A DNA stretch of 64,000 nt from Acidimicrobiales bacterium (GTDB lineage: Bacteria; Actinomycetota; Acidimicrobiia; Acidimicrobiales; SZUA-35), in contig CBDCGK010000004.1 in assembly GCA_965216675.1 (NCBI GenBank), forward strand, positions 455,692 to 519,691. Direction: 5' to 3'. The notes beneath the pieces were generated by a model. It made no database searches, was not told the origin of the DNA, and saw only the letters and a program-made list of their open reading frames with translations. The stretch's first letter is position 1. Every line of letters begins with the position of its first letter. Positions 4,465-45,045 of the stretch are shown here, one piece after another. Made by a program: the position numbers and the translations under genes.

Positions 4465-5283
4465 TCAGGCCTCGGAACTGATCGTGACCGAGACGTCACC
4501 GAGACCGGCGAAGCGGGCGGTCAGGCGACGATCGAGCGGAGCCGGCGGGGCGCCCGAACAGCTACCGGTGATGACCCAGGTTCCAGCGCGAATGCTGCGG
4601 CCGCGGTCGGCCAGATGTCCGAGGGCCCAGTGGAAGGACCGCCACGGGTCGCCGAGCACGTTGGCGCCGAGCCCTTCCGCCAGCAACTCGTCGTCACCTC
4701 CATCGCCGGCGGCCAGCAGACGAACCGCCGTCTCGGCCAGTCGGCCGGGCGAGAACCCGTCGTCCAACGCCACCGGCGCCCCGAGCACTGCGGCGGTGGC
4801 CATCGAGTTGTCGGCCACGACGCTGGGACCGTCGATACCGAGCTGGCTGTCGTAGCGGCCGTCGACCAGCTCCAATGCCGGGGCGACGGCATCGACAACG
4901 GCGACCGCCTCGGCCAGCGTTTCGAACTGTCGACCCGAATCGATGTCGCTCCCCAGCCTCATCGCGAACTCGCATTCGATCAACGGCGGGTGATGGAACG
5001 CTCCGACCGGAACGACTGCGCCCGACCGGTGCACCGCATCGACCGGAAGGCATCCGCCGATCGGTTCATCGATGTCCATGATTCGTTGCGTCTCGACGGT
5101 CGTGCATCCGATCTTGACCAAACCGATGGCGCGGCCGTCGAGATCGATGAGCCGATCCTGAATGGCGTAGCCGTCGGCGAACACCCGTGGCCTCAGCTCG
5201 TCGGGTAGCTCGGTGATGGTTCGGCCGGTCCGTCGGGCGTCGAGCAGCAACGACGCGGCCTCGGCCACCGGGTCGGTGTTCAT
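4465..5283 (-). CDS. 2-keto-4-pentenoate hydratase / 4-oxalocrotonate decarboxylase family protein (FAH-fold, MhpD-like), paralogue 1
   Basis: AIGLVKIGCTTVETQRIMDIDEPIGGCL, PLIECEFAMRLG and VADNSMATAAVLG follow the MhpD/XylJ/XylI family pattern. 4-bp overlap with the upstream paralogue. Confidence 0.75.
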   Translation of the reverse strand: MNTDPVAEAASLLLDARRTGRTITELPDELRPRVFADGYAIQDRLIDLDGRAIGLVKIGCTTVETQRIMDIDEPIGGCLPVDAVHRSGAVVPVGAFHHPPLIECEFAMRLGSDIDSGRQFETLAEAVAVVDAVAPALELVDGRYDSQLGIDGPSVVADNSMATAAVLGAPVALDDGFSPGRLAETAVRLLAAGDGGDDELLAEGLGANVLGDPWRSFHWALGHLADRGRSIRAGTWVITGSCSGAPPAPLDRRLTARFAGLGDVSVTISSEA

Positions 5284-6050
5284 CCCCCACTCACCTCGAA
5301 GCCGACATCATCGAGTGCCACAGACCGCAGATGGTAGTGATCGCCGGCCACGAGATCGAACGGTTTGGCCAGTCCACCGGTGAAGACGATGTCCCCGGCG
5401 TCGAGGCCCAGACCTTCCGACGACAATGATCGGACCAGCCAGGCGACCGCCTCGGCCGGCGACCCCATCGCTGCGTGCCCCCTCCCCGTCCGGGTTTCGT
5501 TCCGGTTGCCGAATTCGATCTCGATGGTGGCCGGATCGCCGTCGAACGACTGGAAGGGACCGATGACGACGGCCTGCGACGACGAATTGTCGGCCGTGTT
5601 GTCGAGCCAGGTGAACCCGAAGTCCACAAATCGTGGGTGCACGATCTCATGTCCGAGGGCCCACCCGTCGGCCGCGTCCAGCACCGCCGTGCGATCCACA
5701 TCGGGTCCCGACAGTTCCCCGCCCGCCCGGTACACCAGCTCGGGTTCGACTTTGGGATGGCGGAGATCGGAGATGTCGATCTTCCGTTCCACGAGCTGGC
5801 GGTCCCATAAGGTGCCCCAGTTTGGTTCGTCGATCCCGAGCGCCTCCCGCATGACCACCGAGGTCCAGCCCAGCTTGTAGCCGATCTGACGGTGACCAGC
5901 CGCGCGGCGAAGCTCGTCGACGGTTCGAGCCACCCGCCTGGCCCCGGTCCACGAGAGATCCGGAAAGCGTTTCGACGGCAGATCGACGAACCCGCCGGAG
6001 CGCTCCGCCAGCCACAGCTCCGTCGCCAGGTCGTCGAGCGTCTCAGCCAT
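5280..6050 (-). CDS. 2-keto-4-pentenoate hydratase / 4-oxalocrotonate decarboxylase family protein, paralogue 2
   Basis: Start set at MAETLDDL (ATG 6050); the ORF upstream of it is Ser/Pro/Arg-rich junk. QIGYKLGWTSVVMREALGIDEPNWGTLW, KVEPELVY and DNTADNSSSQAVVIG are family motifs. 8-bp overlap with the HAD gene. Confidence 0.75.
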   Translation of the reverse strand: MAETLDDLATELWLAERSGGFVDLPSKRFPDLSWTGARRVARTVDELRRAAGHRQIGYKLGWTSVVMREALGIDEPNWGTLWDRQLVERKIDISDLRHPKVEPELVYRAGGELSGPDVDRTAVLDAADGWALGHEIVHPRFVDFGFTWLDNTADNSSSQAVVIGPFQSFDGDPATIEIEFGNRNETRTGRGHAAMGSPAEAVAWLVRSLSSEGLGLDAGDIVFTGGLAKPFDLVAGDHYHLRSVALDDVGFEVSGG

Positions 6051-6735
6051 CGGTATCGAGCCCGGCGACAAGATCGAGATGAAGACCCAGATGGTCGGCG
6101 ACGTCCTGCCATGACCGGGTGGCTCGAGCCACGTCGAACCAGTACACCTGCATGCCGAAGGCCTCCGCTCCGGTGATGTTGAGCGGCTGATCGTCGACGA
6201 AGAGCATCCGTTCCGGGTTGACGCCGACGATGTCGACGACTCGCTCATAGGCCCGCCGGTCGGGTTTGAGAATGTTCGTGTCGGAGCAGTCGGCAAGGTT
6301 GTCGAGCAGGTCGAAGAATGCGATCCTCTTGTGCCACTCCGGTCCGTGGAACGCCCGCAGATCGTTGGTCAGCGCCGACACGCCGTAGCCGGCCGCCAGC
6401 GCCGCCTTGGCCACGATGCCGGCCTCGGGCCGGATCAGTTCATCCGACGGCGGCGAGTAGATGATCGTCATGTAGTCGCGCAACGACAGCTCCCGACCGG
6501 CCATCTCGCCGATCTCGGCCGAGCGTCGGCGCCAGTAATCGCGTTCGGTGAGTCCGTCGCCGACAATCATGCGTTGCCACAGCTCGTCGGTGTCGGGGTC
6601 CAGCGGTCCCATCCAGTCGAGCGTCCCCGGTTCGAAGTCGAGTGCGGCCTCAGCTCGATGATGGAGCTCGACCGGGCTCAACACGCACACCCCGCCCAGA
6701 TCAAGGAGCAGCACGTCGATGTCGGGGCGGGTCAC
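6043..6735 (-). CDS. HAD-superfamily hydrolase
   Basis: N-terminal DVLLLDLGGV (DxDxT-like motif I), SALTND (motif II) and KPDRRAYE...MLFVDDQPLN (motifs III/IV). Confidence 0.75.
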   Translation of the reverse strand: MTRPDIDVLLLDLGGVCVLSPVELHHRAEAALDFEPGTLDWMGPLDPDTDELWQRMIVGDGLTERDYWRRRSAEIGEMAGRELSLRDYMTIIYSPPSDELIRPEAGIVAKAALAAGYGVSALTNDLRAFHGPEWHKRIAFFDLLDNLADCSDTNILKPDRRAYERVVDIVGVNPERMLFVDDQPLNITGAEAFGMQVYWFDVARATRSWQDVADHLGLHLDLVAGLDTDG

Positions 6736-7514
6736 GAGTCGCGCCCCGCCCGGTAGCCGAGCCGGTGTGAGATCAGTCCAGCGGCCCGCTGGACCGCCTG
6801 GGCGATCTGGCTGCGAAGCGGATCCATGCGCTCGGCCGGTCCGGCCACGCTGATGGCGGCGATGATCGCGCCACCGGTGTCTCGTATCGGCGCCCCGATC
6901 GATACGACGCCGACCTCGGACTCGTGCCGGTTCTCCGCGTAGCCCTGCGCCCGGATCTTGTCGAGTTCCTGGCGGAACTTGCGGGGTGATGTGATGGTGT
7001 AGGCGGTTCGTTTGGTCATGCTCAGCTCCGCGAGGACACGGTCTCGACGTTCGGCCGGAAGATGGGCCACCAGCGCCTTGCCCGTCGCCGTGCAGTGCGC
7101 CTCGTTGCGCCGGCCCACGTCGGTGAACAGCCGCAGCGTATTGGGGCTGTCCAGTCGCTCGATGTAGACGACGTGGATGCCGTCGAGCACGCCGACCTGC
7201 ACAGTCTCGCCGGTCCGATTGCGAAGCTCGGTCATGGGCAGCAGGACCGCCTCATGGAGGTCCCGTTGCGAGGGCACGGCGGCGACGAGGTCATACATCG
7301 CCAGGCCGAGCCGGTAGCGACCGGACTCGGGATCCTGCTCCAGCATGCCCTCGTCGGTGAGGGTGGCCAGGATGCGGTGCACCGAGGACTTCGAGATGCC
7401 CAGTTCGCGCGACAGCTCGCTCACGCCCCAGGTCGTTCTGGTTGCGGTGAACGACTTGATCAGACGGACGGCGTTGGTGACCGAGGTGAGCCGGTTCCCG
7501 GACATGGGCGCCAA
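6732..7514 (-). CDS. IclR-family transcriptional regulator
   Basis: VSELSRELGISKSSVHRILATLTDEGMLEQDPESGRYRLG (IclR HTH), plus a C-terminal effector domain (VSIGAPIRDTGGAIIAAISVAGP). Divergent from the dioxygenase genes. Confidence 0.85.
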   Translation of the reverse strand: MAPMSGNRLTSVTNAVRLIKSFTATRTTWGVSELSRELGISKSSVHRILATLTDEGMLEQDPESGRYRLGLAMYDLVAAVPSQRDLHEAVLLPMTELRNRTGETVQVGVLDGIHVVYIERLDSPNTLRLFTDVGRRNEAHCTATGKALVAHLPAERRDRVLAELSMTKRTAYTITSPRKFRQELDKIRAQGYAENRHESEVGVVSIGAPIRDTGGAIIAAISVAGPAERMDPLRSQIAQAVQRAAGLISHRLGYRAGRDS

Positions 7515-7598: not shown

Positions 7599-8507
7599 AT
7601 GGGAATCCTCCGCCTCAGCCACGTCGACATCCATTGCCCCGACTTGGAACTGGCGGCCGCCTACTACACCCAGGTGATGGGGCTCGAGATCTCGGAGCGC
7701 ACGGAGGATCGCCTCTTCCTCAAGTGTTGGGACGAGCGCGATCACCACTGTCTGGCGATCCGCCACGACCCCCGGGTCGGCCTGGACCGTTTCGCATTCA
7801 AGGTGGAGCACCCCGACGATCTCGCCCATTTCGAGTCGAGAATCGAGGCCGCCGGCCATCCCGTTCAGCGCATCTCCGCCGGTGAGGAGATCGGGCAGGG
7901 CGAGTCGATCCGCTTCGAGTTGACCTCCGGTCATGAGATGGAGCTGGTGGCTGATGTCGAGAAGGTCGGGGGTCGTCTCCCGCTGGTCAATCCCCCGCCA
8001 ATGGTCGATGGACTCCTCGGCATAGCTCCTCCTCGGATCGATCACCTCCTGGTCCATGCCGAAGAGGTCCCGGCGGTGGCCCGCTTCTTCCAAGACGTGC
8101 TCGACTTCCGTCTCACCGAGCAGTTGCTCGACGGCGGCGGCCATCAGATGATCGCCTTCCTCGAACGTTCGGCCAAACCCCACGACATCGCCTTCGTCCA
8201 GGGTCCCAACGGTGCCCTCCATCACTTCTCGTTCTGGCTCGATGACTGGGATCATGTTCGCCGGGCGGCCGACATCCTGGCCTACAACGGAGTCAGCATC
8301 GACATCGGTCCCACCCGCCACGGGTTGACGAGAGGCAACACCATCTACTTCTTCGATCCGCTCGGAACCCGCAACGAGGTGTTCAGCGGCGGCTATCGAC
8401 CGGACCCGGACTTTCCCACCATCACCTGGACCGACGAGGAGGCCGGTCGAGCCGTCTTCTACTACGAGGGTGTTCTCAACGAACGCTTCGCCACGGTTCA
8501 CACATGA
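7599..8507 (+). CDS. Catechol 2,3-dioxygenase (type I extradiol dioxygenase, VOC fold), copy 1
   Basis: ILRLSHVDIHCPDLE..., RIDHLLV, PHDIAFVQGPNGALHHFSFW and GPTRHGLTRGNTIYFFDPLGTRNEVF give the two-domain extradiol signature with His/His/Glu ligand contexts. Confidence 0.9.
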   Translation: MGILRLSHVDIHCPDLELAAAYYTQVMGLEISERTEDRLFLKCWDERDHHCLAIRHDPRVGLDRFAFKVEHPDDLAHFESRIEAAGHPVQRISAGEEIGQGESIRFELTSGHEMELVADVEKVGGRLPLVNPPPMVDGLLGIAPPRIDHLLVHAEEVPAVARFFQDVLDFRLTEQLLDGGGHQMIAFLERSAKPHDIAFVQGPNGALHHFSFWLDDWDHVRRAADILAYNGVSIDIGPTRHGLTRGNTIYFFDPLGTRNEVFSGGYRPDPDFPTITWTDEEAGRAVFYYEGVLNERFATVHT

Positions 8508-8622
8508 CGAGAGGTGCCTTGGCCCATGCAGACAACGGCAACCAGCGGGAGTTTTGGCGCCAGCCGAAACTCGACGCGACGGGCTCCGTCCCGTCGCACC
8601 CACACCTAGGAAGGCATCGACG

Positions 8623-9540
8623 ATGAGCGACGGAATTCTTCGACTGTCCCACGCCGAGGTCCGGGTCCCGGATCTGGAGTTGGCGCTGGCCTACTACGTT
8701 GAGGTCGTCGGTCTCGTGGAGACCGCTCGCACCGTCGACAAGGCCTATCTCAAAGGATGGGACGAACATCAACACCACTCGTTGATTCTCACCGCCTCCC
8801 CCACCTACGGCCTGAACGCCCTGGCCTTCAAGGTCATGGAGGAATCCGAACTGGATCGCCTGGCCGCTCGGGTCGAGGAGGCCGGCATCACGGTGAGCCA
8901 TCATGTGCCCGGTGAACTCGACGTGGCCTCGGGTCGTGTCGCCCGATTCGTCGCCCCCAGCGGCCACGTGGTCGACCTCGAATGCGGGCAGGGTCAGGTC
9001 GGCAACGGGCTCTCACTGATCAATCCACCACCTCGGCCCGATGGACTGGTCGGCATGCACCCGCCCCGGCTCGATCACATCTTTCTCCTCTGCGAGGACG
9101 TCGACGGGATCACCGAGTTCTTCACCGACGTGCTCGAGTTCCGCCTGACCGAGCAGATCGTGGCCGACGACGGCCATCAGCTCACCACGTTCCTCGAGCG
9201 CACCCACACCCCCCACGACATCGCCTTTCTCACCGGGCCCAACGGCGGCTTTCATCACCTGGCCTACTGGGTCGACGAGTGGAACGACCTCCGGCACGCA
9301 GCCGACACCTGTGCCCACCACGGTGTGGAGATCGACGCCGGACCCACCCGCCACGGCGCGACCCGGGGCTGTGGCCTCTACTTCTTCGACCCGGCGGGAA
9401 ACCGCAACGAGGTCTACACCGGCGGCTACTGGTTCGACCCGGACGACGAGCCGACCACCTGGACCGAGTCCGAGATGGGCCGCGCCGTGTTCTGTTACAA
9501 GGGTCAGGTCGACCAGCGGTTCATGACGGTGCATTCGTAG
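8623..9540 (+). CDS. Catechol 2,3-dioxygenase (type I extradiol dioxygenase), copy 2
   Basis: Start at ATG 8623 (MSDGILRLSH), preceded by GGAAGG. PHDIAFLTGPNGGFHHLAYW and GPTRHGATRGCGLYFFDPAGNRNEVY. By eye it is roughly half identical to copy 1. Confidence 0.9.
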   Translation: MSDGILRLSHAEVRVPDLELALAYYVEVVGLVETARTVDKAYLKGWDEHQHHSLILTASPTYGLNALAFKVMEESELDRLAARVEEAGITVSHHVPGELDVASGRVARFVAPSGHVVDLECGQGQVGNGLSLINPPPRPDGLVGMHPPRLDHIFLLCEDVDGITEFFTDVLEFRLTEQIVADDGHQLTTFLERTHTPHDIAFLTGPNGGFHHLAYWVDEWNDLRHAADTCAHHGVEIDAGPTRHGATRGCGLYFFDPAGNRNEVYTGGYWFDPDDEPTTWTESEMGRAVFCYKGQVDQRFMTVHS

Positions 9541-9567
9541 GACCACCGAGGGGAACGAACCACAGCG

Positions 9568-10818
9568 ATGTCAGACCAGAACCCGCCCACCCCGAAGCGC
9601 AACGGGCAGTCGGCCCAGCCGGTCGGTTCGACCGACCGGTTCGAGGCGCCGATGTATCTCGCCCGCTACCGGGAGCGGCAAAAGACCGATTCCGGGTCGC
9701 AGGGGGCCGGTGAGCCTTCTGTGGCCCGCGGCGGCGACAACGGTGGCGGGCCGACCGGCGCCGAGAGGGCCAACGGCACCGCCGATGCCGAACCGACCGT
9801 CGACACCGACGAAGCAGAAACCGACGATGCACCGCTGTACCTGCGGCGGTTCCGTGACCGCACGGCCGGCCAGGCACCGGCCGATGTCGAGAAGCCGTTG
9901 TGGCAGCGGGCCGACCTCAGCGTCCAGCAGGCTCTCACCGAGGACAACCGGAACAAGGAGATCTCGGCGCCCGTCGAGGCCTACCGCAAGCTGACCAACG
10001 ACGTCTACCTCATTCGCCACGGTGAAACACAGGGTTACTCCACCGATTCGGGTCTGACCCCCCAGGGGGCGTGGCAGGCTCACAGTTACGGGCGGACCCT
10101 CGCTCGCCGTATCTCGTCGGGTGAGACCGTCGTGTTCCGTCATGCTCCCACCAACCGGGCCCGCGAGACGGCCGAGCAGATCCGTCGGGGTCTCGGTGAC
10201 GGACTCGAGCAGTACGAGAAGAGCATCACGATCGTCGAGCCGGAGCCGATGAACGAGTTCCGGAACTTCCAGTTCGTCGCCCCCGACGGTCTGAAGGACG
10301 TCACGGCCGCCTTTCGCGAATATCACGCACTTCTCGAACAGTTCGAACGGTCGGCCCGGAGCGACCGCCCGCTGTGGCTGGTCGAGATGGACCGCTTCTG
10401 GCGAACCCAGCAGGGCGGCGGCGACCCGATCCAGCACTGGCTCACCATCCCACTGATGCACTTCGAGCCACCCGCTTTGTGTGTCCGCCGGTTCTGGGCC
10501 GGCATCACCAAGCTGTCGGATCAGTTCCCGGGTGCCCGCCTGGCGGTCGCCACCCACTCCGGGTGCATCCGGGCGGTCGCCGTCTCCGCCCTCGGCTACG
10601 ACCCGGGCGAGCCCTACAACACCGAACACGTGCGCATCAAGCTCTACGCATCGAACGAGCACACCCGGGGCGGAACCGATGCCACCGTCACCTACCGGAA
10701 CCGGGTCCAGGAGATCAAGGTACCCCGGATCGACCAACTGCCCCAGTGGTCGGTTCACGACGACTGGTCCGGGTTCGCCGATCCGACCGAGCTGACGCAA
10801 CCGAGCCCGCACCGATGA
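9568..10818 (+). CDS. Histidine phosphatase (phosphoglycerate-mutase-like) family protein with a ~140-aa low-complexity N-terminal extension
   Basis: VYLIRHGETQGYS (RHG catalytic motif), RARETAEQI and ATHSGCIRAV (second His). The N-terminal region carries two copies of an AP(M/L)YL-R-(Y/F)R-(E/D)R motif. Confidence 0.7.
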   Translation: MSDQNPPTPKRNGQSAQPVGSTDRFEAPMYLARYRERQKTDSGSQGAGEPSVARGGDNGGGPTGAERANGTADAEPTVDTDEAETDDAPLYLRRFRDRTAGQAPADVEKPLWQRADLSVQQALTEDNRNKEISAPVEAYRKLTNDVYLIRHGETQGYSTDSGLTPQGAWQAHSYGRTLARRISSGETVVFRHAPTNRARETAEQIRRGLGDGLEQYEKSITIVEPEPMNEFRNFQFVAPDGLKDVTAAFREYHALLEQFERSARSDRPLWLVEMDRFWRTQQGGGDPIQHWLTIPLMHFEPPALCVRRFWAGITKLSDQFPGARLAVATHSGCIRAVAVSALGYDPGEPYNTEHVRIKLYASNEHTRGGTDATVTYRNRVQEIKVPRIDQLPQWSVHDDWSGFADPTELTQPSPHR

Positions 10819-10953
10819 CCAGCGTCAACACCTCGAACGAGCCCAACTGGCCGAACAGCGGAGACAGCAATGTGCGAAGCATGCCCGGTGATCGACTGGG
10901 CCAAGGAACTCCCCACCATCCGATCGTTTACGGCGAGAAAGGTCGATGCGTCC

Positions 10954-12039
10954 ATGACTGATCACATCGTGTGGTTCGATCGATACGAGCCCGAACACAA
11001 GCCATTCGTCGGCGGCAAGAACTCCAGCCTCGGAGAGATGATGCGGGCCGAACTGCCCGTTCCACCCGGATTCGCGGTGACGACCAACGCCTACGAGCTG
11101 ATCTGGTCGGATCGAACGATGGTGAACGACGTCAACGACCTGTTGCGGTCGATCGACCACGACGATCTGGCCGCCAACCGGGAGATCTCCACCAAGATCC
11201 GGGACCGGATCGAACAGAATCCCGTTCCCGACCAGGTTGCGGCCGACATCGCCGACGCGTACAGCGCGCTGTGCCGCCACTGTGACGTCGACGACGTGCC
11301 GGTGGCGGTGCGATCGTCGGCGACGGCGGAGGACCTGCCCGACGCCTCGTTCGCCGGCCAGCAGGACACGTTCCTGTGGATCCAGGGCGCCGACGCCGTC
11401 GTCGAGCACGTGCGGCGGTGCTGGTCGTCGCTGTTCACCGACCGGGCCATCGCCTACCGGCACTCCATGGGGTACCTGCATCAGGCGATCGCCATGTCGG
11501 TCGGCGTGCAGAAGATGGTCGACCCGGTCGCGGCGGGGGTGGCGTTCACGCTCAACCCCACCAACGGTGACCGTTCCCAGGTGGCCGTCGATGCCTCGTG
11601 GGGACTGGGCGAAGCGGTCGTGTCGGGTGAGGTGACCCCGGACAACTTCCTGATCGACAAGGTGCTGCGTGAGGTCGTCCACCGGGAGATCTCCGACAAG
11701 CACGTCGAATACCGACTGACCGAAAGCGGTGTGGTGGAGAAGACGGAGGTGCACGCCGACCGGCGGGAGACGCCGTGTGTCTCCGATGAAGATCTGGTGG
11801 CCATCACCATCCTGGCCCGTCGTGCCGAGAAGCACTACGGCTGTCCGCAAGACGTGGAGTGGGCGATCGACCGGCATCTGCCGGTCGGGGAAAACGTCGT
11901 GATGCTGCAGTCGAGGCCGGAAACGGTGTGGTCCCAGAAACCGAGGAAATCCGTGGGGGCGAAGACCGGAGACCCGATGAGTTCGATCGTCTCCACGCTG
12001 TTGTCACCCATGCACAACAACAAAAAAGACGACGACTGA
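10954..12039 (+). CDS. PEP synthase / PPDK N-terminal ATP-grasp (PPDK_N) domain protein, PpsB-like
   Basis: FVGGKNSSLGEM..LPVPPGFAVT, VAVRSSATAEDLPDASFAGQQDTFL, VGVQKMV and DVEWAI...VMLQSRPET are the PPDK_N nucleotide-binding signatures. No swivel-His or PEP/pyruvate domain. Start at ATG 10954, after GAGAAAGG. Confidence 0.8.
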   Translation: MTDHIVWFDRYEPEHKPFVGGKNSSLGEMMRAELPVPPGFAVTTNAYELIWSDRTMVNDVNDLLRSIDHDDLAANREISTKIRDRIEQNPVPDQVAADIADAYSALCRHCDVDDVPVAVRSSATAEDLPDASFAGQQDTFLWIQGADAVVEHVRRCWSSLFTDRAIAYRHSMGYLHQAIAMSVGVQKMVDPVAAGVAFTLNPTNGDRSQVAVDASWGLGEAVVSGEVTPDNFLIDKVLREVVHREISDKHVEYRLTESGVVEKTEVHADRRETPCVSDEDLVAITILARRAEKHYGCPQDVEWAIDRHLPVGENVVMLQSRPETVWSQKPRKSVGAKTGDPMSSIVSTLLSPMHNNKKDDD

Positions 12040-12089
12040 GGTCGCGTCGACGCTCATCAAGAAGTTCAACGAAGAAGGGGAGCATCGTC

Positions 12090-13892
12090 ATGTCCGAGAA
12101 ACGTTTTCCGAGCCCGTTCGGGGTCGAAGGACCCGAGGGGATCGAAGGTTGGGAGGAGCTGTACCCGTACAGCGTCGTCTTCTCCGAGGACCTGAAGGAC
12201 TACGAGGACAACCGGTTCTGGTTCTGGGATTCCATGCACTGGGGTTGGGCCATGACACCGTGGGACTCGACGTTCCTCGAGCTGGCCATCTCGGCGCTGA
12301 GCCAGTTCAACTCCCGTCACTACCGGATTCCACCAGCGGACGGCATCGACTTCCGGGTGCTCTACGGCTATCCCTACTTCACACCGGTGACAATCGAGGA
12401 CGGCGCCCGTATCGAGAGCCGCGTACCCGACTTCATGGAGCGGGCCGGTCACTACTTCATGAATTGGGACGACCTCTACCAGAACTGGTTGGGCAAGATC
12501 AAAGCAACGATCGACGAGATCAGCGGCCTCGATTTCTCGCCTCTGCCGGAGATGGAGGATCTGTCGGTTGTCACCGACGGGCTGGGCAGCGGCTCCGGTT
12601 CCCGACTCCAGAGTGACTACCACCGGTTCAAGGACCTGATCCTTCTGGTTTGGGAGTACCACTTCGAGTTCCTCAACCTCGGCTACGCCGCCTACCTGGA
12701 CTTCTTCGGCTTCTGCAAGCAGGCGTTCCCATCGATCCCGGATCTCGGCATCGCCAAGATGGTGGCCGGTATCGAGGTGGACCTCTTCCGCCCGAACGAG
12801 GAGCTGAAGGTCATCGCCCAGAAGGCGGTCGACGCCGGCCTGTCCCGGGTGTTCGACGACCCCGACGACGTCGCCGCCATCCAGGCCGCACTGGCCGGAA
12901 CCGACCTGGAGGCCTACTGGAACGAGGTACAGGAGCCGTGGTTCAACTTCAGCTCCGGCACCGGGTTCTACCACTACGACAAGACGTGGAAGGACCATCC
13001 GGAGATCCCGTATGGCTTCATCGCCGACTACATCACCAAGATCGAAGCCGGTGAGGACATCAGCCGCCCGATCGAGGCCATCACCGCCGAGCGGGATCGG
13101 GTGGTGTCGGAATACGCCGAACTGCTGGAGACCGATGAGGACCGTCAGGCCTTCCAGGAGAAGCTGGGTCTGGCCCGGGTGGTGTTCCCCTATGTCGAGA
13201 ACCACAACTTCTACATCGAGCACTGGACCATGTCGGTGGTGTGGGCGAAGCTCAAGGAACTCGGCGCCACCCTGGTCAAGGAGGGGATCGCCAGCGAGGT
13301 CGACGACGTCTTCTACATCCGGCGCGACGAGATGGACGAGGTCCTGTTCGACATCTACTCGGCCTGGGCCGTCAACGCACCCAGCCGTGGCCCGAAGTAC
13401 TGGCCGCCCCGCATCGCCCGCCGTCGCGAGATCGTGGACAAGATGAGGGACTGGAAGCCGCCGAAAGCCCTCGGCGAACCCCCGGCCGTGGTCACCGAGC
13501 CGTTCACCATCATGTTGTGGGGCATCACCTCGGAGTCGGTGAACGGCTGGCTCGGCGCCGACGACGAGGGCAATGGCGTCTCGGGTATGGCCGCCTCACC
13601 GGGCACGGCCGAGGGTCCGGCCCGTCTGATCTTCAGTCCCGACGACATCGGCGACATCGTCGACGGCGAGATCCTGGTCGCCCCGATCACCGCTCCGTCG
13701 TGGGCCCCTGTCTTTCCCAAGATTCGAGCCTGTGTCACCGACATCGGCGGGATGATGAGCCACGCCGCCATCGTCTGCCGTGAATACGGCATCCCTGCCG
13801 TCACCGGGACCGGGTTCGGCACCTCACAGATCCAGAACGGTCAAATCATCCGGGTCGACGGTTCGACCGGGACGGTGACGATCGTCGACTAG
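12090..13892 (+). CDS. PEP-utilising-enzyme mobile (phosphohistidine swivel) domain protein with a ~450-aa N-terminal domain of unknown function, PpsA-like
   Basis: The C-terminus GMAASPGTAEGPARLI...ILVAPITAPSWAPVFPKIRACVTDIGGMMSHAAIVCREYGIPAV is the swivel-His domain. The N-terminal part (FWFWDSMHWGWAMTPWD...) has no motif I can name. Start at ATG 12090, after GAAGGGGA. Confidence 0.8.
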   Translation: MSEKRFPSPFGVEGPEGIEGWEELYPYSVVFSEDLKDYEDNRFWFWDSMHWGWAMTPWDSTFLELAISALSQFNSRHYRIPPADGIDFRVLYGYPYFTPVTIEDGARIESRVPDFMERAGHYFMNWDDLYQNWLGKIKATIDEISGLDFSPLPEMEDLSVVTDGLGSGSGSRLQSDYHRFKDLILLVWEYHFEFLNLGYAAYLDFFGFCKQAFPSIPDLGIAKMVAGIEVDLFRPNEELKVIAQKAVDAGLSRVFDDPDDVAAIQAALAGTDLEAYWNEVQEPWFNFSSGTGFYHYDKTWKDHPEIPYGFIADYITKIEAGEDISRPIEAITAERDRVVSEYAELLETDEDRQAFQEKLGLARVVFPYVENHNFYIEHWTMSVVWAKLKELGATLVKEGIASEVDDVFYIRRDEMDEVLFDIYSAWAVNAPSRGPKYWPPRIARRREIVDKMRDWKPPKALGEPPAVVTEPFTIMLWGITSESVNGWLGADDEGNGVSGMAASPGTAEGPARLIFSPDDIGDIVDGEILVAPITAPSWAPVFPKIRACVTDIGGMMSHAAIVCREYGIPAVTGTGFGTSQIQNGQIIRVDGSTGTVTIVD

Positions 13893-13907
13893 CCGCCAGC
13901 TCACACA

Positions 13908-13955
13908 CTTCTGTGCCTGTCAGCGCCCGGAACCCGGAGCTGACAGGCACAGAAG
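13908..13955. repeat. Perfect 17-bp inverted repeat (CTTCTGTGCCTGTCAGC / GCTGACAGGCACAGAAG) with a 14-nt loop
   Basis: Read directly. It lies in the 93-bp spacer between the PpsA-like gene and the Rieske oxygenase gene, with no trailing T-tract. It could be an intercistronic hairpin or a protein-binding site. Confidence 0.5.
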
Positions 13956-13985
13956 GCCCAAACCGACCAACCGAAGGACGTCACC

Positions 13986-15245
13986 ATGCTCACCCAGGAA
14001 CAAAATGATGAACTGACCCGAGTCGGGCCCGGCACCCCGATGGGGGCCATGCTCCGGCACTACTGGTATCCGATCGCCTTTGTTCGCGAACTGGACGAGT
14101 TCCCCTCGAAGAAGGTTCGTCTCCTGGGTGAGAACTGGGCGTTGTTCAAGACCGCCACCGGTTACGGCATCGTGGCCGAACGGTGTCCGCACCGTGGCGC
14201 CTCCATGGTCTACGGCATCGTCGAGTCCGACGGTCTTCGCTGTGGCTATCACGGTTGGAAGTTCGACACGGCCGGCAAGTGCGTCGACATCCTGGCCGAA
14301 CCCGACTCCTCACCGAAGTTCCGGGAGGGTTGCGCCATCAAAGCGGGCGAGGCCCAGGCACTCGGTGGCATGATCTGGGTCTATGTCGGCGACGGGCCCG
14401 CCCCGAAGCTGCCCCGCTATGAGGCCTACGTGATGGACGGTGTGCGCGACATCGGCCACTCGACGCTGCCGTGCAGCTGGTTGCAGATCATGGAAAACGC
14501 CGTCGATCCCTACCACGTCGAAGCCCTCCACGGGAACTACTTCGAGTTCATCGCCGATCAGCAGGGCACACCCATGCCCGGATCGTTCGGCGGCAACAAA
14601 CACGAGAAGGTGGCGTTCGATCCGTTCGAGCACGGCATCATCAAACGTCGTCTGCTGGAAGGTCAGAGCGAGGAGGACGACGACTGGAAGATCGGTCACC
14701 CCCTCGTGTTCCCCTACTGCATGTGGGTGGGCGGCAACGGCGTCTACCAGATGCAGATCCGGGTACCGATCGACGACACCCACACCTGGATGCTGTTCTA
14801 CACCGTGCACGCTCCCGACGGCGCCGAACTACCGGAGAACCCGCCGGTGATCGACTACGAGTACCAGTGGAAGCGTGACGACGGTACGTTCATCGTCGAC
14901 TACATCGAGGGCCAGGACATCATGGCCTGGGTCACCCAGGGTGAGATCGCCGACCGGACCAACGAGAAGCTGACCAAGAGCGACGTCGGCGTGGTGGCGT
15001 GTCGCCGCATGTACCGCGACTGCATCGACGCGGTGCGCAACGGCGACGATCCACCGGTGGCGGTGGTCCGCGAGGATCACGACGTCATCAAGCTGCCGCT
15101 CGAGCGGTCGAAGTTCGGTCGGGGCGCCGAGTTCGCCAGCGACTGGATCGACAACGGCTCCATGCGGTACAGCCCTCAGGCCGACTACATGAAGCAGCTC
15201 CATCGCGACGCCGAGGCCAATCGCCGGCAACTGGCCGAAAGCTGA
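13986..15245 (+). CDS. Rieske [2Fe-2S] non-haem-iron oxygenase, alpha-only (phthalate/KshA-type family)
   Basis: CPHRGASM...CGYHGWKF (CxH-x17-CxxH Rieske motif) and ENAVDPYHVEALHG (DxxHxxxxH mononuclear iron motif). No beta subunit, ferredoxin or reductase gene is adjacent. Confidence 0.85.
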   Translation: MLTQEQNDELTRVGPGTPMGAMLRHYWYPIAFVRELDEFPSKKVRLLGENWALFKTATGYGIVAERCPHRGASMVYGIVESDGLRCGYHGWKFDTAGKCVDILAEPDSSPKFREGCAIKAGEAQALGGMIWVYVGDGPAPKLPRYEAYVMDGVRDIGHSTLPCSWLQIMENAVDPYHVEALHGNYFEFIADQQGTPMPGSFGGNKHEKVAFDPFEHGIIKRRLLEGQSEEDDDWKIGHPLVFPYCMWVGGNGVYQMQIRVPIDDTHTWMLFYTVHAPDGAELPENPPVIDYEYQWKRDDGTFIVDYIEGQDIMAWVTQGEIADRTNEKLTKSDVGVVACRRMYRDCIDAVRNGDDPPVAVVREDHDVIKLPLERSKFGRGAEFASDWIDNGSMRYSPQADYMKQLHRDAEANRRQLAES

Positions 15246-16098: not shown

Positions 16099-16101
16099 CC
16101 C

Positions 16102-16144
16102 CACGTCACTCATCATCACATCACCCATCATCACGTCACTCATC
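16102..16144. repeat. Two exact 13-bp direct repeats CACGTCACTCATC (16102-16114 and 16132-16144)
   Basis: Read directly. They sit in the short divergent region between the GNAT gene and the 4-oxalocrotonate decarboxylase gene. Confidence 0.4.
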
Positions 16145-16175
16145 GGCACACGCCGGGAACGGAGCACGCAAGACC

Positions 16176-16952
16176 ATGATCGACCACGCCCACTGGGCCT
16201 CCTATCTCGCCGCCGGTGTCGACGAGCGACGGGAGCTTCAGGCCATCACCAAGCAGGTCGACGAACTCTCGATTGACGACGCCTACGCCATCCAGACTGC
16301 GCTTCTCGAACTCCAACTCGACCGGGGCGACACCCTGGCCGGGGCCAAACTCGGCTTGACCTCGGTGGCCAAGCAGGAGCAGATGGGGGTCACCGAGCCC
16401 TGTTATGGCTGGGTGCCGGCCGCGACGGTGGTGGCCAACGGCGGCACGATCCCGCTCGACGAGCTGATCCATCCCCGGTGTGAGCCGGAGCTGGTGTTCG
16501 TGCTCGGTGAGGATCTGGCCGGGCCCGGCGTGACCGGCGAGGATGTGTTGGACGCCACCGAGAAGGTGCTGGGGGGCATCGAGATCATCGACTCGCGCTA
16601 CGAGGCATTCTCGTTCACCTTGCCCGATGTCATCGCCGACAACACCTCGGCCGCCCGGGTCGTGCTCGGCAGCGAGGGTATCGGGCCCCGCGACCACGAT
16701 CTTGCCGCCATCGACTGCTGGTTCGACATCAACGGCGAACAGGTCGGCGAGGCGACCGGCGCCGCCCTGCTCGGCGACCCGGCCACCTGCGTCGCCCACC
16801 TGGCCAACCACGTCGGCAAGGCCGGTCTCAAGCTGGAGGCCGGCTGGCACATCCTGGCCGGGGCTGTGACCGACGCCAAGCCGTTCACCCCCGGCACGAC
16901 CGCCACCGCACGCTATTCGGTGCTGGGCGACGTGTCAGTCACGGCCGTCTGA
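16176..16952 (+). CDS. 4-oxalocrotonate decarboxylase-like (XylI/DmpH family, FAH fold)
   Basis: LAGAKLGLTSVAKQEQMGVTEPCYGWV, RCEPELVFVLG and IADNTSAARVVLG. Located immediately upstream of a 4-OT gene and the hydratase gene. Confidence 0.8.
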   Translation: MIDHAHWASYLAAGVDERRELQAITKQVDELSIDDAYAIQTALLELQLDRGDTLAGAKLGLTSVAKQEQMGVTEPCYGWVPAATVVANGGTIPLDELIHPRCEPELVFVLGEDLAGPGVTGEDVLDATEKVLGGIEIIDSRYEAFSFTLPDVIADNTSAARVVLGSEGIGPRDHDLAAIDCWFDINGEQVGEATGAALLGDPATCVAHLANHVGKAGLKLEAGWHILAGAVTDAKPFTPGTTATARYSVLGDVSVTAV

Positions 16953-16968: not shown

Positions 16969-17220
16969 ATGCCCCTCGTCAACGTGCACATGGCCTCCGG
17001 CCGCAGTCCCGAGCAGAAGAAGGCGCTGATGACCGCGATCACCGACGCCGTCGTCGACACGCTCGGCGCCCCGCGTGATTCGGTGCGGGTCTGGATCACC
17101 GAGATGTCGAACCTCGACTTCATGGCCGGTGGCGAACTGCTGGCCGACAAGCAAGCGCGCCTTGCCGCCGGACAGGCGACGCCGATCGAGTCCACGTCGA
17201 ATGGAGAAGGTGATGGTTGA
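16969..17220 (+). CDS. 4-oxalocrotonate tautomerase family protein
   Basis: MPLVNVHMASGRSPEQKKALMTAITDAVVDTLGAPRDSVRVWITEM has the catalytic Pro1 after Met and a beta-alpha-beta tautomerase pattern. It carries a ~20-aa C-terminal tail beyond the usual length. Confidence 0.8.
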   Translation: MPLVNVHMASGRSPEQKKALMTAITDAVVDTLGAPRDSVRVWITEMSNLDFMAGGELLADKQARLAAGQATPIESTSNGEGDG

Positions 17221-18007
17221 GCAGAACCTGATCGAGCAGGCGGCCCTCGCGCTGCGCAAGGCGATGGAGTCGTCAACGCCCATCGAGCCGATCCGCACCA
17301 TCGTCGGAACCGACTCCGACATCGACGTCGGCTACGCCATCCAGGATCTGAACACCGAGGCCGACATCGCCGCCGGCCGCCGGGTCTGCGGACGCAAGAT
17401 CGGCGTCACGGCCCGGGCCGTGATGGACATGATCGGTGTGGATCAGCCCGACTTCGGCACGCTGTTCGCCGACATGGAATACGGCGACGGTGTGCCCATC
17501 GAACCCGGCCGTCTCATCCAGCCCAGGGCCGAGGCCGAGGTCGCGCTGGTGCTCGATCGCGACCTCGACAAGGGACAGCACACGTTCAACGACATAATCG
17601 CCGCCACCGCCTACGCCCTCCCGTCGATCGAGATCGTCGATTCCCGCATCGCCGATTGGGACATCTCGATCGTCGACACGGTGGCCGACAATGCCAGCTG
17701 CGGCCTGTACGTGCTCGGTGGTCGACCCGTCACGCTCGACCGCTTCGACCTGCGGACCGTCCCGATGACGATGAACGTCAACGGCGTCGAGGCCACGACC
17801 GGCATCGGCGCCGCCTGCCTCCACCACCCGCTGAACGCCGCCCGATGGCTGGCCGACACCCTGTCGGCGAGAGGCATCCCGCTCCGAGCCGGCGACGTGT
17901 TGATGACCGGCTCGCTCGGAGCGATGAAACCGATCGGTCCCGGTGACACGGTCGACGCCGACTTCGGGCCGCTCGGCACCGTGACCACGTACCTGGAGCA
18001 GGCATGA
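17213..18007 (+). CDS. mhpD: 2-oxopent-4-enoate (2-keto-4-pentenoate) hydratase
   Basis: [38 protein letters not shown] and [13 protein letters not shown]. Start at ATG 17213 after GGAGAAGG, overlapping the tautomerase stop. 4-bp overlap with the next gene. Confidence 0.85.
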
Positions 18008-18903
18008 CGGGATCACGAGCCACGGCCGCCATCGTCGGGTCCGGAAACATCGGCACCGACCTCATGTACAAGCTGTTGCGGTCCGAGCACCTCGAGCCGC
18101 GGTGGATGATCGGTGTCGACCCCGACTCCGAGGGTTTGAAACGGGCGGCGGATCAGGGTTTGGAGGCGTCGGCCGAGGGTGTGGATTGGCTACTCGCCCA
18201 GTCAGAGTTGCCCCAGGTCGTGTTCGAGGCCACGTCGGCCTACGTACACGTCCGCAACGCGCCCCGCTACCGGGAAGCCGGCATCAGGGCGGTCGACCTG
18301 ACTCCGGCGGCCAGGGGTCCGTTCGTGGTGCCGCCGGCCAACCTCACCGAACATCTCGACGAGATGAACGTCAACATGGTCACCTGCGGTGGCCAGGCCA
18401 CGATTCCCATGGTCCACGCCGTGTCCCGTGTCGTACCGGTCGACTACGCCGAGATCGTGGCCACGGTGGCCTCGAAGTCAGCCGGTCCGGGAACCCGTCA
18501 GAACATCGACGAGTTCACCCGGACGACCTCACGGGCCGTCGAGGAGATCGGCGGCGCCACCCGGGGCAAGGCCATCATCATCCTCAACCCGGCCGAGCCA
18601 CCGCTCATCATGCGCGACACCATCTTCTGTTCCATTCCGGCCGACGCCGACACGGCCAAGATCACCGACTCGATCAACGAGGTGGCGGCCCAGGTCCAGT
18701 CCTATGTCCCCGGCTACCGGCTCACCGCCGAGCCCCAGTTCGATCCGCCCGAGCTCGGTCAGACCAACGGCCGGGTCGCCATCTTCGTCGAGGTCGAAGG
18801 GGCCGGCGACTTCCTGCCGCCGTACTCCGGGAACCTCGACATCATGACCGCAGCCGCCACCAAGGTGGGCGAGGAGATCGCCCAGACTATGACTCACCGC
18901 TGA
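18004..18903 (+). CDS. mhpF: Acetaldehyde dehydrogenase (acetylating)
   Basis: [34 protein letters not shown] (catalytic Cys context) and [14 protein letters not shown] are strongly characteristic of DmpF/MhpF. Confidence 0.92.
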
Positions 18904-18988: not shown

Positions 18989-20038
18989 ATGACCGTCCCC
19001 GCCCCACTCCCCCGGACCTTTTGCGACACCCTCGACGTCCGGGTCACCGACACGTCGCTTCGCGACGGCTCGCACGCCAAACGTCATCGGTTCACCGAGG
19101 CTCACGTCCGCTCGATCGTGGCCGCGTTGGACGACGCCGGCATGCCCGTCATCGAGGTGACCCACGGCGACGGGCTCGGCGGCTCGTCCTACAACTACGG
19201 CCACTCCCTGGTCGATGAACGCATCCTGATGAAAGCCGCCGTCGACCAGGCGGTCAACGCCAAGATCGCCGCCCTGATGCTGCCGGGCCTCGGCACCAAG
19301 GACGACATCAAGGCCATCGCCGAGATCGGCGTGTCGATCGTACGGGTAGCCACCCATTGCACCGAGGCCGATATCTCCGAACAGCACTTCGGGCTGGCCC
19401 GGGAGATCGGCCTGGAAACCGTCGGGTTCCTGATGATGGCCCACACGTCGTCGCCCGAGGACCTGGCCTCACAGGCCCGCATCATGACCGATGCCGGCTG
19501 CCAATGCGTGTACGTCGTCGACTCGGCCGGGGCCATGATCCTGGAGGACGCCTCGGACCGGGTGGCCGCCGTCGTGGCCGAACTCGGTGACGACGCCCAG
19601 GTCGGCTTCCACGGCCACGAGAACCTGTCACTGTCGCTGGCCAACACCCTCGCGGCCATGCGGGCCGGGGCCGTCCAGGTCGACGGCTCGACCCGCCGGT
19701 TCGGCGCCGGGTCCGGCAACACGAGCTGTGAGGCGTTGGCCGCGGTCACCGAGCGCCTCGGCATCAACTCCGGGCTCGACGTCTTGAAGATGATCGACGC
19801 CGCCGAAGACGTGGTCCGCCCGGTCATGGACGGCGAGTGTGTGCTCGATCGTATGTCGCTCATCATGGGCTACGCCGGCGTCTATTCGAGCTTCCTGAAG
19901 CACGCCTACCGGGCCGCCGAACGCTACGACGTGTCGGGGGCCGACATCCTGATGGAATGCGGCAACCGAAAGCTGGTGGGCGGCCAGGAGGATCAGATCA
20001 TCCAGATCGCGGCCGACCTGGCCGCATCCCGGGGCTGA
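18989..20038 (+). CDS. mhpE: 4-hydroxy-2-oxovalerate aldolase
   Basis: [39 protein letters not shown] and [18 protein letters not shown] are the DmpG/MhpE signature blocks. Confidence 0.92.
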
Positions 20039-29081: not shown

Positions 29082-29120
29082 TGGTTGTTTCTCCTTGAGG
29101 CGGTTCTCTTCGGCAGGTTT

Positions 29121-31061: not shown

Positions 31062-31076
31062 TCCTCAGCCACTCCC

Positions 31077-39830: not shown

Positions 39831-39915
39831 TTGTTTGCCTTTCTCGGAATCGTCCGGGCTGTGAATCGGGTCGGTTGATGAGTTGTGGGATCGGGTGTGC
39901 GGATCAGGTTGCCAA

Positions 39916-40224
39916 TCAGGTTTGGCTGTCGTGTGCCAGCATCCCGCCGGTCAGGTTGACGACGTCGCCGAATCCTCTCGACGCCAGGAACCCGGCGGCC
40001 TGACCGCTCCGGGCCCCCGATCGACAGAGGAGGACGATCCGTCGGTCGTGGCGGAGTTCGTTCGTTCGGTACGGGAGCTCGCCCAACGGGATGTTCACGG
40101 CGCCGGGCAGGGTGCCGGCGGCCACCTCCTCCGGCTCGCGAACATCGATGAGCTGTGACCCCTCACCGAGCAGCGACCGATAGTCGGTGACCGGGTGTTC
40201 GGTGTAGGTGGCTTGGGTGTGCAT
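39916..40224 (-). CDS. Single-domain rhodanese sulfurtransferase
   Basis: QLIDVREPEEVAAGTLPGAVNIPLGEL and the active-site loop VLLCRSGARSGQAA. Confidence 0.85.
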   Translation of the reverse strand: MHTQATYTEHPVTDYRSLLGEGSQLIDVREPEEVAAGTLPGAVNIPLGELPYRTNELRHDRRIVLLCRSGARSGQAAGFLASRGFGDVVNLTGGMLAHDSQT

Positions 40225-40261
40225 GGTGTCTCCTTGGGGAGTCCTGGAAACGTTCAGAGGA

Positions 40262-45044: not shown

Positions 45045-45045
45045 G

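Follow-up and report, generated by a model that had tools for sequence, protein, structure and literature searches.

A two-component aromatic dikinase encoded with a histidine phosphatase, a Rieske oxygenase and catechol 2,3-dioxygenases in Acidimicrobiia

The locus and its conservation

The 64 kb stretch of Acidimicrobiales DNA analysed here, referred to throughout as the window, has a G+C content of ~65%, and its closest relatives are metagenome-assembled genomes (MAGs) of Acidimicrobiales and other Acidimicrobiia, with protein identities of up to 90%. At 9568-15245 it carries four plus-strand genes in series, encoding a histidine phosphatase, an ATP-grasp (PPDK_N) protein, a protein with a phosphohistidine swivel domain and an alpha-only Rieske oxygenase. 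A reading made earlier from the sequence alone had described this co-directional set as following two extradiol dioxygenase genes, and the arrangement is present as described (Table 1). The second and third proteins resemble the subunits PpsB and PpsA of phenylphosphate synthase and are called PpsB-like and PpsA-like below; the extradiol enzymes are two paralogs of catechol 2,3-dioxygenase (C23O).

The start of the phosphatase gene is supported by the record of an identical 416-aa protein (P0241). For the PpsB-like protein an alternative start at 10954 would give 361 aa. The long open reading frame (ORF) at 11859-13892 is over-extended, and the start of the PpsA-like gene at 12090 was set by NCBIfam profiles and by orthologs of 598-605 aa; for the second C23O paralog, the TIGR03211 alignment begins at M52 of a long ORF. 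Exact-sequence look-ups with the window PpsA-like protein and P0241 returned no record, and context was drawn from orthologs. Scanning for promoters and terminators gave no usable information on this actinobacterial sequence of 65% G+C, with 0 promoters and terminator counts below the shuffle mean.

When one genome of each GTDB species was scanned, at least 593 loci proved to encode relatives of the 600-aa PpsA-like protein. The best 80 were compared with the window proteins by tblastn, and each count given here includes only loci with sufficient flanking sequence. The PpsB-like gene adjoins the PpsA-like gene in 71 of 72 loci, the Rieske gene lies directly downstream of the PpsA-like gene in 68 of 71, the histidine phosphatase is found upstream in 62 of 67 and at least one C23O is upstream in 58 of 62. 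The whole set (two dioxygenases, phosphatase, PpsB-like, PpsA-like and Rieske proteins) is present in 53 of the 58 fully covered loci, mostly in Acidimicrobiia MAGs. Such joint occurrence indicates that the cassette is not a chance neighbourhood. A check of the gene order across relatives had been proposed with the sequence-only reading, and the order is indeed strongly kept: a minus-strand IclR gene followed by C23O, C23O, histidine phosphatase, PpsB, PpsA and Rieske genes is retained down to ~60% identity, and 52 related loci have the IclR gene at the corresponding place. Some rearrangement is tolerated, as seen in locus L026, where the Rieske gene precedes the PpsA gene. Unsupervised clustering of neighbours recovered the same core, together with a HAD hydrolase (41 loci), lower-pathway genes and a tautomerase.

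The same cassette order also occurs in MAGs labelled Acidobacteriota, Spongiisociaceae and Kineosporiaceae, labels that could reflect gene transfer or binning error. Searches for related proteins returned thousands of matches each for the kinase subunit and the Rieske protein, against ~1,100 for the phosphatase; in every search, identity to the query was at least 62% among the 120 best. The cassette is common in Acidimicrobiia MAGs from many samples, and its hosts are uncultured aquatic Acidimicrobiia. The GNAT gene that follows the Rieske gene is an insertion confined to the window and its closest relatives, L001 and L005; most loci lack it and have a decarboxylase gene immediately after the Rieske gene.

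Table 1. Genes of the catabolic locus in the window, with the matches on which each assignment rests
Feature	Position	Strand	Match or remark
MhpD/DmpH-like (FAA-hydrolase fold) paralogs, two	4465..6112	-	downstream of HAD gene
HAD-IA family hydrolase, possible second phosphatase	6043..6735	-	Pfam Hydrolase/HAD_2; TIGR01509 above cut-off
IclR-family transcriptional regulator, divergent from catabolic operon	6732..7514	-	Pfam IclR_C 161.9 bits and HTH_IclR
Catechol 2,3-dioxygenase paralog 1	7599..8507	+	TIGR03211 361.7 bits (cut-off 320.2)
Catechol 2,3-dioxygenase paralog 2	8623..9540	+	TIGR03211 339.6 bits (cut-off 320.2)
Histidine phosphatase (branch 1), 416 aa	9568..10818	+	His_Phos_1 57.2 bits (cut-off 21.7)
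ATP-grasp (PPDK_N) dikinase subunit, PpsB/CreI/HpeI-like, 389 aa	10870..12039	+	PPDK_N E=2e-112
Substrate-binding and phosphohistidine swivel subunit, PpsA/CreH/HpeH-like, 600 aa	12090..13892	+	PEP-utilizers 85.9 bits
Alpha-only Rieske non-heme iron oxygenase, phthalate/LigXa family, 419 aa	13986..15245	+	Pfam Rieske and LigXa_C
GNAT acetyltransferase, Rv0428c_C-like	15265-16167	-	between Rieske and lower-pathway genes
4-Oxalocrotonate decarboxylase-like (DmpH-like)	16176..16952	+	best NCBIfam match TIGR03218, 235 bits, below cut-off
2-Hydroxymuconate (4-oxalocrotonate) tautomerase	16969..17220	+	NF002571 69.5 bits (cut-off 55); ortholog by tblastn, 77% identity
2-Keto-4-pentenoate hydratase-like	17201..18007	+	NF008461 310.6 bits; TIGR03220 265 bits
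Acetaldehyde dehydrogenase (acetylating)	18004..18903	+	TIGR03215 458.5 bits (cut-off 282)
4-Hydroxy-2-oxovalerate aldolase	18989..20038	+	TIGR03217 486.7 bits (cut-off 286)

The two-component dikinase

The smaller subunit matches PPDK_N and no other domain, as had been read from its sequence, and aligns with PDB entry 9goj, a 387-aa stand-alone ATP-grasp protein deposited as 'phosphoenolpyruvate synthase' (E=4e-79). In the larger subunit, the PEP-utilizers swivel domain forms the last ~100 residues and bears the motif TDIGGMMSH558AAIVCREYG, in which His558 (within GGMMSHAAIV) is invariant in 42 sequences. The sequence-only reading had recognised this swivel domain and had left the large N-domain unassigned; the first part of that description stands and the second does not. 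The protein scores 806 bits against the NCBIfam PRK08296 models (PRK08296.1-2), and its AlphaFold2 model, with a predicted local distance difference test (pLDDT) score of 84.6, has as its best structural matches the rifampin phosphotransferase (RPH) entries 5hv1 and 5fbt, over ~613 alignment columns at E=2e-17. Judged from the model, the N-domain is an RPH-type small-molecule-binding domain with the rifampin-binding fold, and the same role has been reported for this domain in HpeH. RPH itself is built from the same three modules (ATP-grasp, small-molecule-binding and swivel His) and likewise phosphorylates a hydroxyl group, but it is a single polypeptide, shares only 18% identity with the window protein, and its NCBIfam model rph gives 112 bits against a cut-off of 999.

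No match to PF02896, the phosphoenolpyruvate (PEP)/pyruvate TIM barrel, was found in any of the four cassette proteins, and scores against the PEP synthase equivalog TIGR01418 are 354 and 92 bits, far below its cut-off of 739.75. The earlier exclusion of PEP synthase and pyruvate phosphate dikinase (PPDK) is therefore sound. Domain content, identities and the RPH-like fold also agree with the earlier proposal that the two proteins form a split dikinase for small molecules, akin to phenylphosphate synthase. Two-component, ATP-dependent dikinases that act on small molecules in the breakdown of aromatics have already been named as a subfamily (PMC12167813); its members are PpsAB in anaerobic phenol, CreHI in aerobic 4-cresol and HpeHI in hydroxyphenylethanone metabolism (PMC12167813, PMC9618137).

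For comparison with these, representatives were taken from annotated plasmids of Azoarcus sp. KH32C, Rhodococcus and Rhizobium. Megablast against plasmids gave short matches only, which pointed to Rhodococcus Cre-type clusters. At the protein level, the large subunit is 52% identical to Cre-type CreH, 47% to Azoarcus PpsA and 41% to an Hpe-like protein, values similar to or above those between the Cre, Pps and Hpe groups themselves (43-50%). The small subunit shares 49% of its residues with Azoarcus PpsB, 46-47% with Cre-type CreI and 61% with a protein of a UbiD-linked locus, L076. In a neighbour-joining tree the large subunits of the cassette form a clade of their own, sister to the Cre type; the window protein carries the motif GGMMSHAAIVCREYG exactly as in the Cre type. 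The pair is a member of the two-component aromatic dikinases (PpsAB, CreHI, HpeHI). It is not a PEP synthase and, sensu stricto, not a phenylphosphate synthase either; it is very probably a phenolic small-molecule dikinase.

Phenylphosphate synthase (PpsABC of Thauera aromatica; Azoarcus locus L084) shows the same split, with separate ATP-grasp (~40 kDa) and His-carrier (~70 kDa) subunits. The Azoarcus genes are arranged as PpsA-PpsB-CBS protein-ppcBDAG-UbiD-UbiX. The window differs in having the order B-A in place of A-B, neither a CBS-domain PpsC nor UbiD/UbiX, and a context that depends on oxygen, and its proteins fall in a separate clade. Closer to the anaerobic system are two Acidimicrobiia loci, L072 and L076, whose kinase nests inside the cassette clade (63% identity). 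They are laid out as IclR-UbiD-HAD-PpsB-PpsA, followed by a gene for a 1184-aa indolepyruvate-oxidoreductase-like protein (e.g. L076:5551-15334), and have no Rieske, histidine phosphatase or C23O genes. To judge from this gene context, these loci point to an oxygen-independent counterpart of the cassette, and since the same kinase clade sits there in a UbiD phenylphosphate-carboxylase setting, the link argues for a simple phenol as the substrate.

In agreement with the sequence-only reading, no UbiD/UbiX-type carboxylase was found in the window, nor was a ferredoxin or an oxygenase-type reductase, either among the Pfam-scanned ORFs (the larger ones, up to 60.7 kb) or by tblastn with representative queries.

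The Rieske oxygenase and the phosphatases

The Rieske protein has an intact set of metal ligands. The cluster ligands C67/H69/C86/H89 and the iron-site residues D174/H177/H182/D311 align with those of phthalate dioxygenase (PDO) and are invariant in 63 orthologs. The best solved relative by sequence is the phthalate 4,5-dioxygenase PDO-KF1 (PDB 7fjl, E=7e-45), followed by carbazole 1,9a-dioxygenase, SxtT, NdmA and dicamba demethylase, all of them alpha-only enzymes of the phthalate family. No beta-subunit gene adjoins the Rieske gene in the window and none is conserved beside it in related loci, so its description as alpha-only stands. PDO-KF1 and the window protein share the Rieske and 2-His-1-Asp ligands, the alpha-only organisation and a C-terminal QD...ADR...SD motif. 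The aromatic substrate of PDO is a dianion, which the enzyme grips through the basic residues Arg207, Arg231 and Arg244 (PMC8649396). In the window protein, Arg207, Arg244, Ser179 and Ser182 of PDO are not conserved as such; K220-R221-R222, H238 and R259 are invariant in the 63 orthologs. A low-confidence part of the pairwise alignment puts these basic residues at or near the anion face of PDO, a mere hint at an anionic Rieske substrate.

The oxygenase had also been described as an orphan with no reductase or ferredoxin partner in the window. The absence is confirmed for the searches given above; the orphan status is weaker than implied. Alpha-only phthalate-family oxygenases require a reductase only, and this is often encoded elsewhere, as for LigXa. 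Among the related loci, no more than 5 have a gene for a Rieske-type ferredoxin. In 15, the Rieske gene is immediately followed by one for a protein of ~95 aa that bears a pair of CxxC knuckles (CPxCGG ... CHxCGW), for example at L038:13178-13474 and L048:13146-13442. Missing from the window and unmatched in Pfam, this protein could be a zinc ribbon or else an electron carrier of the rubredoxin kind. Neighbour clustering of the related loci showed that no gene for a cis-dihydrodiol, alcohol or aldehyde dehydrogenase is conserved beside the Rieske gene. This fits a route yielding catechol directly. In this the window also differs from PDO-KF1, as no cis-diol dehydrogenase gene lies beside its Rieske gene.

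The first gene had been read as an RHG histidine phosphatase, and its His_Phos_1 match and catalytic residues confirm this: the RHG motif at aa 150-152 and the second catalytic histidine, H330, are invariant in 39 homologs. Among a set of 54 orthologs, RHA replaces RHG in 9. The domain begins near aa 146 and is preceded by a low-complexity, variable extension of ~145 aa. Within this extension a motif, P[LM]YLxR[FY]R, is kept in orthologs, ~60 residues before RHG in most. It is duplicated in the window protein (aa 28-35 and 89-96) and in close relatives, where it is predicted with low confidence to form short helices; judging by sequence, it could be a docking motif. The phosphatase diverges from others of its superfamily yet is under strong constraint, and no solved relative of it is detectable by sequence. 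Foldseek matches of its model (pLDDT 66.9) to CobC, PGM and PhoE-type proteins support the fold, not the specificity, and the match to SixA is weak (E=0.0012; 18.7 bits against a cut-off of 74.5).

The HAD-IA hydrolase encoded on the minus strand next to the IclR gene belongs to a family found in 41 related loci and also in the UbiD-linked loci. As a counterpart of PpcD, the delta subunit of phenylphosphate carboxylase, it was rejected, BLASTP detecting no similarity. Unrelated phosphatases accompany the related systems: an HD-domain protein in Cre-type sets, a NagD-like HAD protein in Hpe, and a metallophosphoesterase together with a HAD-IB protein on a haloarchaeal plasmid. Because the phosphatases have been replaced non-orthologously from one system to another, the comparison suggests that a dephosphorylation step is integral to the logic of the pathway.

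A proposed route from phenols to catechol

Besides the two C23O genes upstream of the phosphatase gene, the window encodes five lower-pathway proteins of a catechol meta pathway, downstream of the cassette and the GNAT gene. The two C23O paralogs are 51% identical to one another, both pass the TIGR03211 equivalog cut-off and both keep the motifs PR[IL]DH, PHDIAF, HH and YFFDP.GNRNE. Almost every related locus keeps both, in tandem and in this order; distinct substrates or a heteromer are possibilities. The tautomerase and decarboxylase are genes of the dehydrogenative branch. In the Ilumatobacter locus L090, the operon is unbroken from the C23O genes to an aldehyde dehydrogenase gene that follows the aldolase, a gene set that would make up a complete catechol meta pathway; 11 further loci have an aldehyde dehydrogenase within 10 kb. 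Since the window encodes a tautomerase and a decarboxylase but no semialdehyde dehydrogenase, 2,3-dihydroxyphenyl phosphate or pyrogallol was considered as the ring substrate, whose cleavage would lead straight to 2-hydroxymuconate or the corresponding acyl phosphate; this idea was provisionally set aside in view of the aldehyde dehydrogenase genes of L090 and the 11 further loci. On the other side of the IclR gene, the paralog at 4465-5283 gives weak DmpH/MhpD matches, and that at 5291-6112 has 53% identity with a conserved L090 protein of 258 aa, itself a paralog of the decarboxylase/hydratase.

Domain content, catalytic motifs, family membership of all parts and synteny are observed directly, and the steps of a pathway can be proposed from them. 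On balance it is probable that phenol or related phenols are converted to an aryl phosphate, the ring is oxygenated, and catechol is released and opened by meta cleavage. The six genes at 7599-15245 and the lower-pathway genes would then form an oxygen-dependent operon for simple phenols, probably controlled by the divergent IclR regulator, in which three steps (kinase, Rieske oxygenase and dephosphorylation) would replace phenol hydroxylase. By homology, the dikinase would phosphorylate the phenolic hydroxyl with ATP via phospho-His558, giving aryl phosphate, AMP and Pi. The Rieske enzyme, judging from synteny and family, would oxygenate the ring beside the ester, with the anionic phosphate as recognition handle and electrons from a reductase presumably encoded elsewhere. 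The histidine phosphatase might then act on 2-hydroxyphenyl phosphate to yield catechol or methylcatechol; alternatively, phosphate may leave spontaneously after ipso/ortho dioxygenation, in which case the phosphatase would be a salvage or proofreading enzyme. Finally, the two C23O enzymes would open the ring, and the 4-oxalocrotonate branch (tautomerase, decarboxylase, hydratase, aldolase and acetaldehyde dehydrogenase) would deliver pyruvate and acetyl-CoA. The ATP spent is probably the price of capturing scarce phenols irreversibly and with high affinity, as has been argued for HpeHI, whose sub-micromolar Km values were read as a sign of scavenging (PMC12167813).

Parts of this scheme have a precedent in the Cre-type gene sets of two Rhodococcus plasmids (L083 and L086), arranged as IclR-P450-PpsB-PpsA-SDR-ferredoxin-reductase-HD hydrolase-ALDH, where SDR stands for short-chain dehydrogenase/reductase and ALDH for aldehyde dehydrogenase. 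The Cre pathway reportedly comprises the CreHI kinase, the CreJEF P450 system, CreG, CreC and CreD. In it, phosphorylation of the phenol by the dikinase comes first, the oxygenase then works on the phosphorylated product, and the phosphate is taken off later by a phosphohydrolase. The sequence-only reading had known of no phosphorylate/oxygenate/dephosphorylate logic in an aerobic actinobacterial setting; this part of it falls, since the Cre pathway follows exactly that logic with a P450, and the Hpe pathway brackets a carboxylation in the same way. As cited in PMC12167813, CreHI starts aerobic 4-cresol catabolism by phosphorylation in Corynebacterium glutamicum. Both the Cre system and the window are aerobic and actinobacterial, use a two-component dikinase of sister clades and have an IclR regulator beside the genes. 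They differ in the oxygenase, a Rieske protein in the window and a P450 with its own ferredoxin and reductase in Cre, and in the phosphatase, His_Phos_1 as against HD-domain. The window also lacks the SDR and ALDH for side-chain oxidation, and tblastn with the Rhodococcus Cre-type accessory proteins found none in the window except for one weak SDR match 7 kb away. Since the cassette is fused to extradiol dioxygenases, the ring, and not a methyl group, is the likely target.

The Hpe/Acv pathway of Rhodococcus rhodochrous GD02 proceeds through the HpeHI kinase, the HpeCBA biotin carboxylase and the HpeD HAD phosphatase (PMC9618137, PMC12167813), and the Hpe-type genes on a Rhizobium plasmid include those for a biotin carboxylase and a HAD hydrolase. 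Here too a two-component kinase comes first and a dedicated phosphatase later; the enzyme that follows the kinase takes the phosphorylated compound only, and the affinity of the kinase is of a scavenging type. The differences lie in the middle step, which is a carboxylation, in the NagD-like HAD phosphatase and in the lower identity of the large subunit. The logic of kinase, oxygenase and phosphatase recurs with non-homologous parts, the Rhodococcus plasmids combining P450 and HD phosphohydrolase and the haloarchaeal plasmid an alpha/beta Rieske enzyme with metallophosphoesterase and HAD-IB proteins. A literature search for a Rieske-linked dikinase cassette found nothing relevant, which speaks for the searchable literature only and is no proof. 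As far as that literature extends, the new elements are a Rieske enzyme in place of the P450, a histidine phosphatase in place of HD or HAD proteins, the direct link to extradiol cleavage and the prevalence in Acidimicrobiia. Another combination that appears to be undescribed occurs on a plasmid of Natribaculum luteum (L088, 3033-11709), where a PpsA/PpsB-like pair (40% identity) lies beside an alpha/beta Rieske dioxygenase, with genes for an aldehyde dehydrogenase, a metallophosphoesterase, a HAD-IB phosphatase and an IclR protein.

Several points weigh against the proposed route. The substrate of this kinase clade is assigned from homology and gene neighbours only. The conserved HAD hydrolase is a second candidate phosphatase and makes the role of the histidine phosphatase ambiguous. 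Pairwise alignment places the conserved basic residues of the Rieske protein at or near the anion face of PDO in a low-confidence part, the alignment being weak past residue ~190, and its LigXa-type O-demethylase label at JGI would point to methoxyphenols over phenol. Its reductase or ferredoxin was not found in the window, and neither a 2-hydroxymuconate-semialdehyde dehydrogenase nor the corresponding hydrolase was found in the 64 kb, which leaves the encoded pathway incomplete. The route also costs two ATP equivalents more than phenol hydroxylase and needs a selective reason.

A bolder form of the ring-oxygenation step, rather unlikely though worth stating, is a Rieske enzyme working as a phenylphosphate 1,2-dioxygenase: by attacking the carbon that bears the phosphate together with the adjacent one, it would make phosphate leave spontaneously and form catechol in a single step. 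The histidine phosphatase would then be a proofreading valve. We know of no described example of such dioxygenolytic dephosphorylation; a phosphate-expelling dioxygenase would parallel those that expel sulfite, halide or gamma-glutamyl-amine.

The substrate might instead be a methoxyphenol such as guaiacol, an unlikely reading in which the kinase phosphorylates the hydroxyl, the Rieske enzyme O-demethylates the neighbouring group to give 2-hydroxyphenyl phosphate and formaldehyde, and the phosphatase releases catechol. The automatic JGI name of the Rieske orthologs is LigXa, 5,5'-dehydrodivanillate O-demethylase, in keeping with the Pfam LigXa_C match; many alpha-only Rieske enzymes of the phthalate family are O-demethylases (VanA, LigXa and DdmC, the last among the PDB matches); and the phosphatase would be strictly required, in line with its conservation. 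The LigXa_C match, however, spans only a 50-residue C-terminal motif that is also found in phthalate dioxygenase, and the enzyme that ranks first among its solved relatives is a ring dioxygenase rather than a demethylase. No gene for formaldehyde detoxification is conserved in the neighbourhood, and the UbiD-linked sister loci suggest plain phenol.

It is improbable that the cassette enzymes do not act in sequence, with the Rieske protein acting on an unphosphorylated aromatic and the kinase and phosphatase forming a separate cycle of detoxification, trapping or regulation. That the Rieske enzyme needs a phosphorylated substrate is itself a supposition, adjoining kinase and phosphatase genes could constitute a buffering cycle, and the altered order in L026 shows that rearrangement is tolerated. 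Yet the tight, long-lived adjacency of the genes is hard to explain without a shared pathway, the kinase product would be a dead end if no enzyme consumed it, and every characterised relative passes its phosphorylated compound to the next enzyme.

Activation of aniline or another arylamine is less probable again. The kinase would form phenylphosphoamidate, the Rieske enzyme would dioxygenate C1 and C2 to give catechol, and the histidine phosphatase would cleave the P-N compound. Aerobic aniline dioxygenase systems, with a gamma-glutamylanilide synthetase, a Rieske dioxygenase and a hydrolase, provide the model: ATP activation of the ring substituent, Rieske dioxygenation to catechol with loss of the activated group, a hydrolase that reverses the activation, and meta cleavage. 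Their activating enzyme is glutamine-synthetase-like and uses a gamma-glutamyl group, and they have no homology to the window kinase or phosphatase. The similarity of the phosphatase to SixA, a phosphohistidine phosphatase, would suit a P-N bond, but it falls far below the cut-off. PpsAB-type synthases that make phenylphosphoamidate are reported (PMC7500099), as in Desulfatiglans anilini. The nearest characterised relatives by sequence nevertheless act on phenols, and no nitrogen-handling gene is conserved nearby.

Of two further alternatives, a Cre-like side-chain oxidation is very improbable: the Rieske enzyme would hydroxylate the methyl group of 4-methylphenyl phosphate, leading to 4-hydroxybenzoate, much as TsaM, a phthalate-family Rieske monooxygenase, acts on toluenesulfonate, an anionic para-substituted toluene. 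The kinase clade is indeed sister to the Cre type, but no alcohol or aldehyde dehydrogenase and no genes of a protocatechuate pathway are conserved with the cassette, which is fused instead to two C23O genes and a catechol meta pathway. A split PEP synthase or PPDK recycling pyruvate from the meta pathway, to which the ATP-grasp subunit would lend itself by its match to the N-terminal domain of PEP synthase models (E=1e-110), is effectively refuted already by the missing TIM barrel, the low equivalog scores and the rifampin-binding fold of the large subunit.

If the proposed conversion of phenols to catechol via an aryl phosphate is correct, phosphorylation-initiated phenol catabolism would reach beyond anaerobes (PpsAB), P450-dependent cresol oxidation (Cre) and lignin ketones (Hpe). 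The strategy would be modular, one kinase clade being paired with a UbiD carboxylase where oxygen is not used and with a Rieske oxygenase and extradiol cleavage where it is. Surveys keyed on phenol hydroxylase or on "anaerobic" pps genes would then mis-assign the organisms that carry the cassette. Should the Rieske enzyme be a phenylphosphate 1,2-dioxygenase, abundant uncultured aquatic Acidimicrobiia would possess an ATP-driven, high-affinity, oxygen-dependent route from phenol to catechol that needs no phenol hydroxylase. The Rieske enzyme may also be of use in biocatalysis, with phosphate as a removable directing group, a device already exploited for CreJ. In addition, the locus supplies a functional context for a divergent subfamily of histidine phosphatases and for the NCBIfam PRK08296 models, which are named "hypothetical protein".

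Three neighbourhoods unrelated to the cassette were noted elsewhere in the window. At 27912-32804, on the minus strand, an acyl-CoA dehydrogenase gene lies with a biotin carboxylase/carboxyltransferase pair. A sulfur cluster at 38451-47741 encodes a sulfate permease, three rhodanese-domain proteins, a metallo-beta-lactamase-rhodanese fusion and a Pyr_redox_2 protein. The third, at 58480-63521, has as its first gene a molybdoenzyme of the xanthine-dehydrogenase family (58480-60837).

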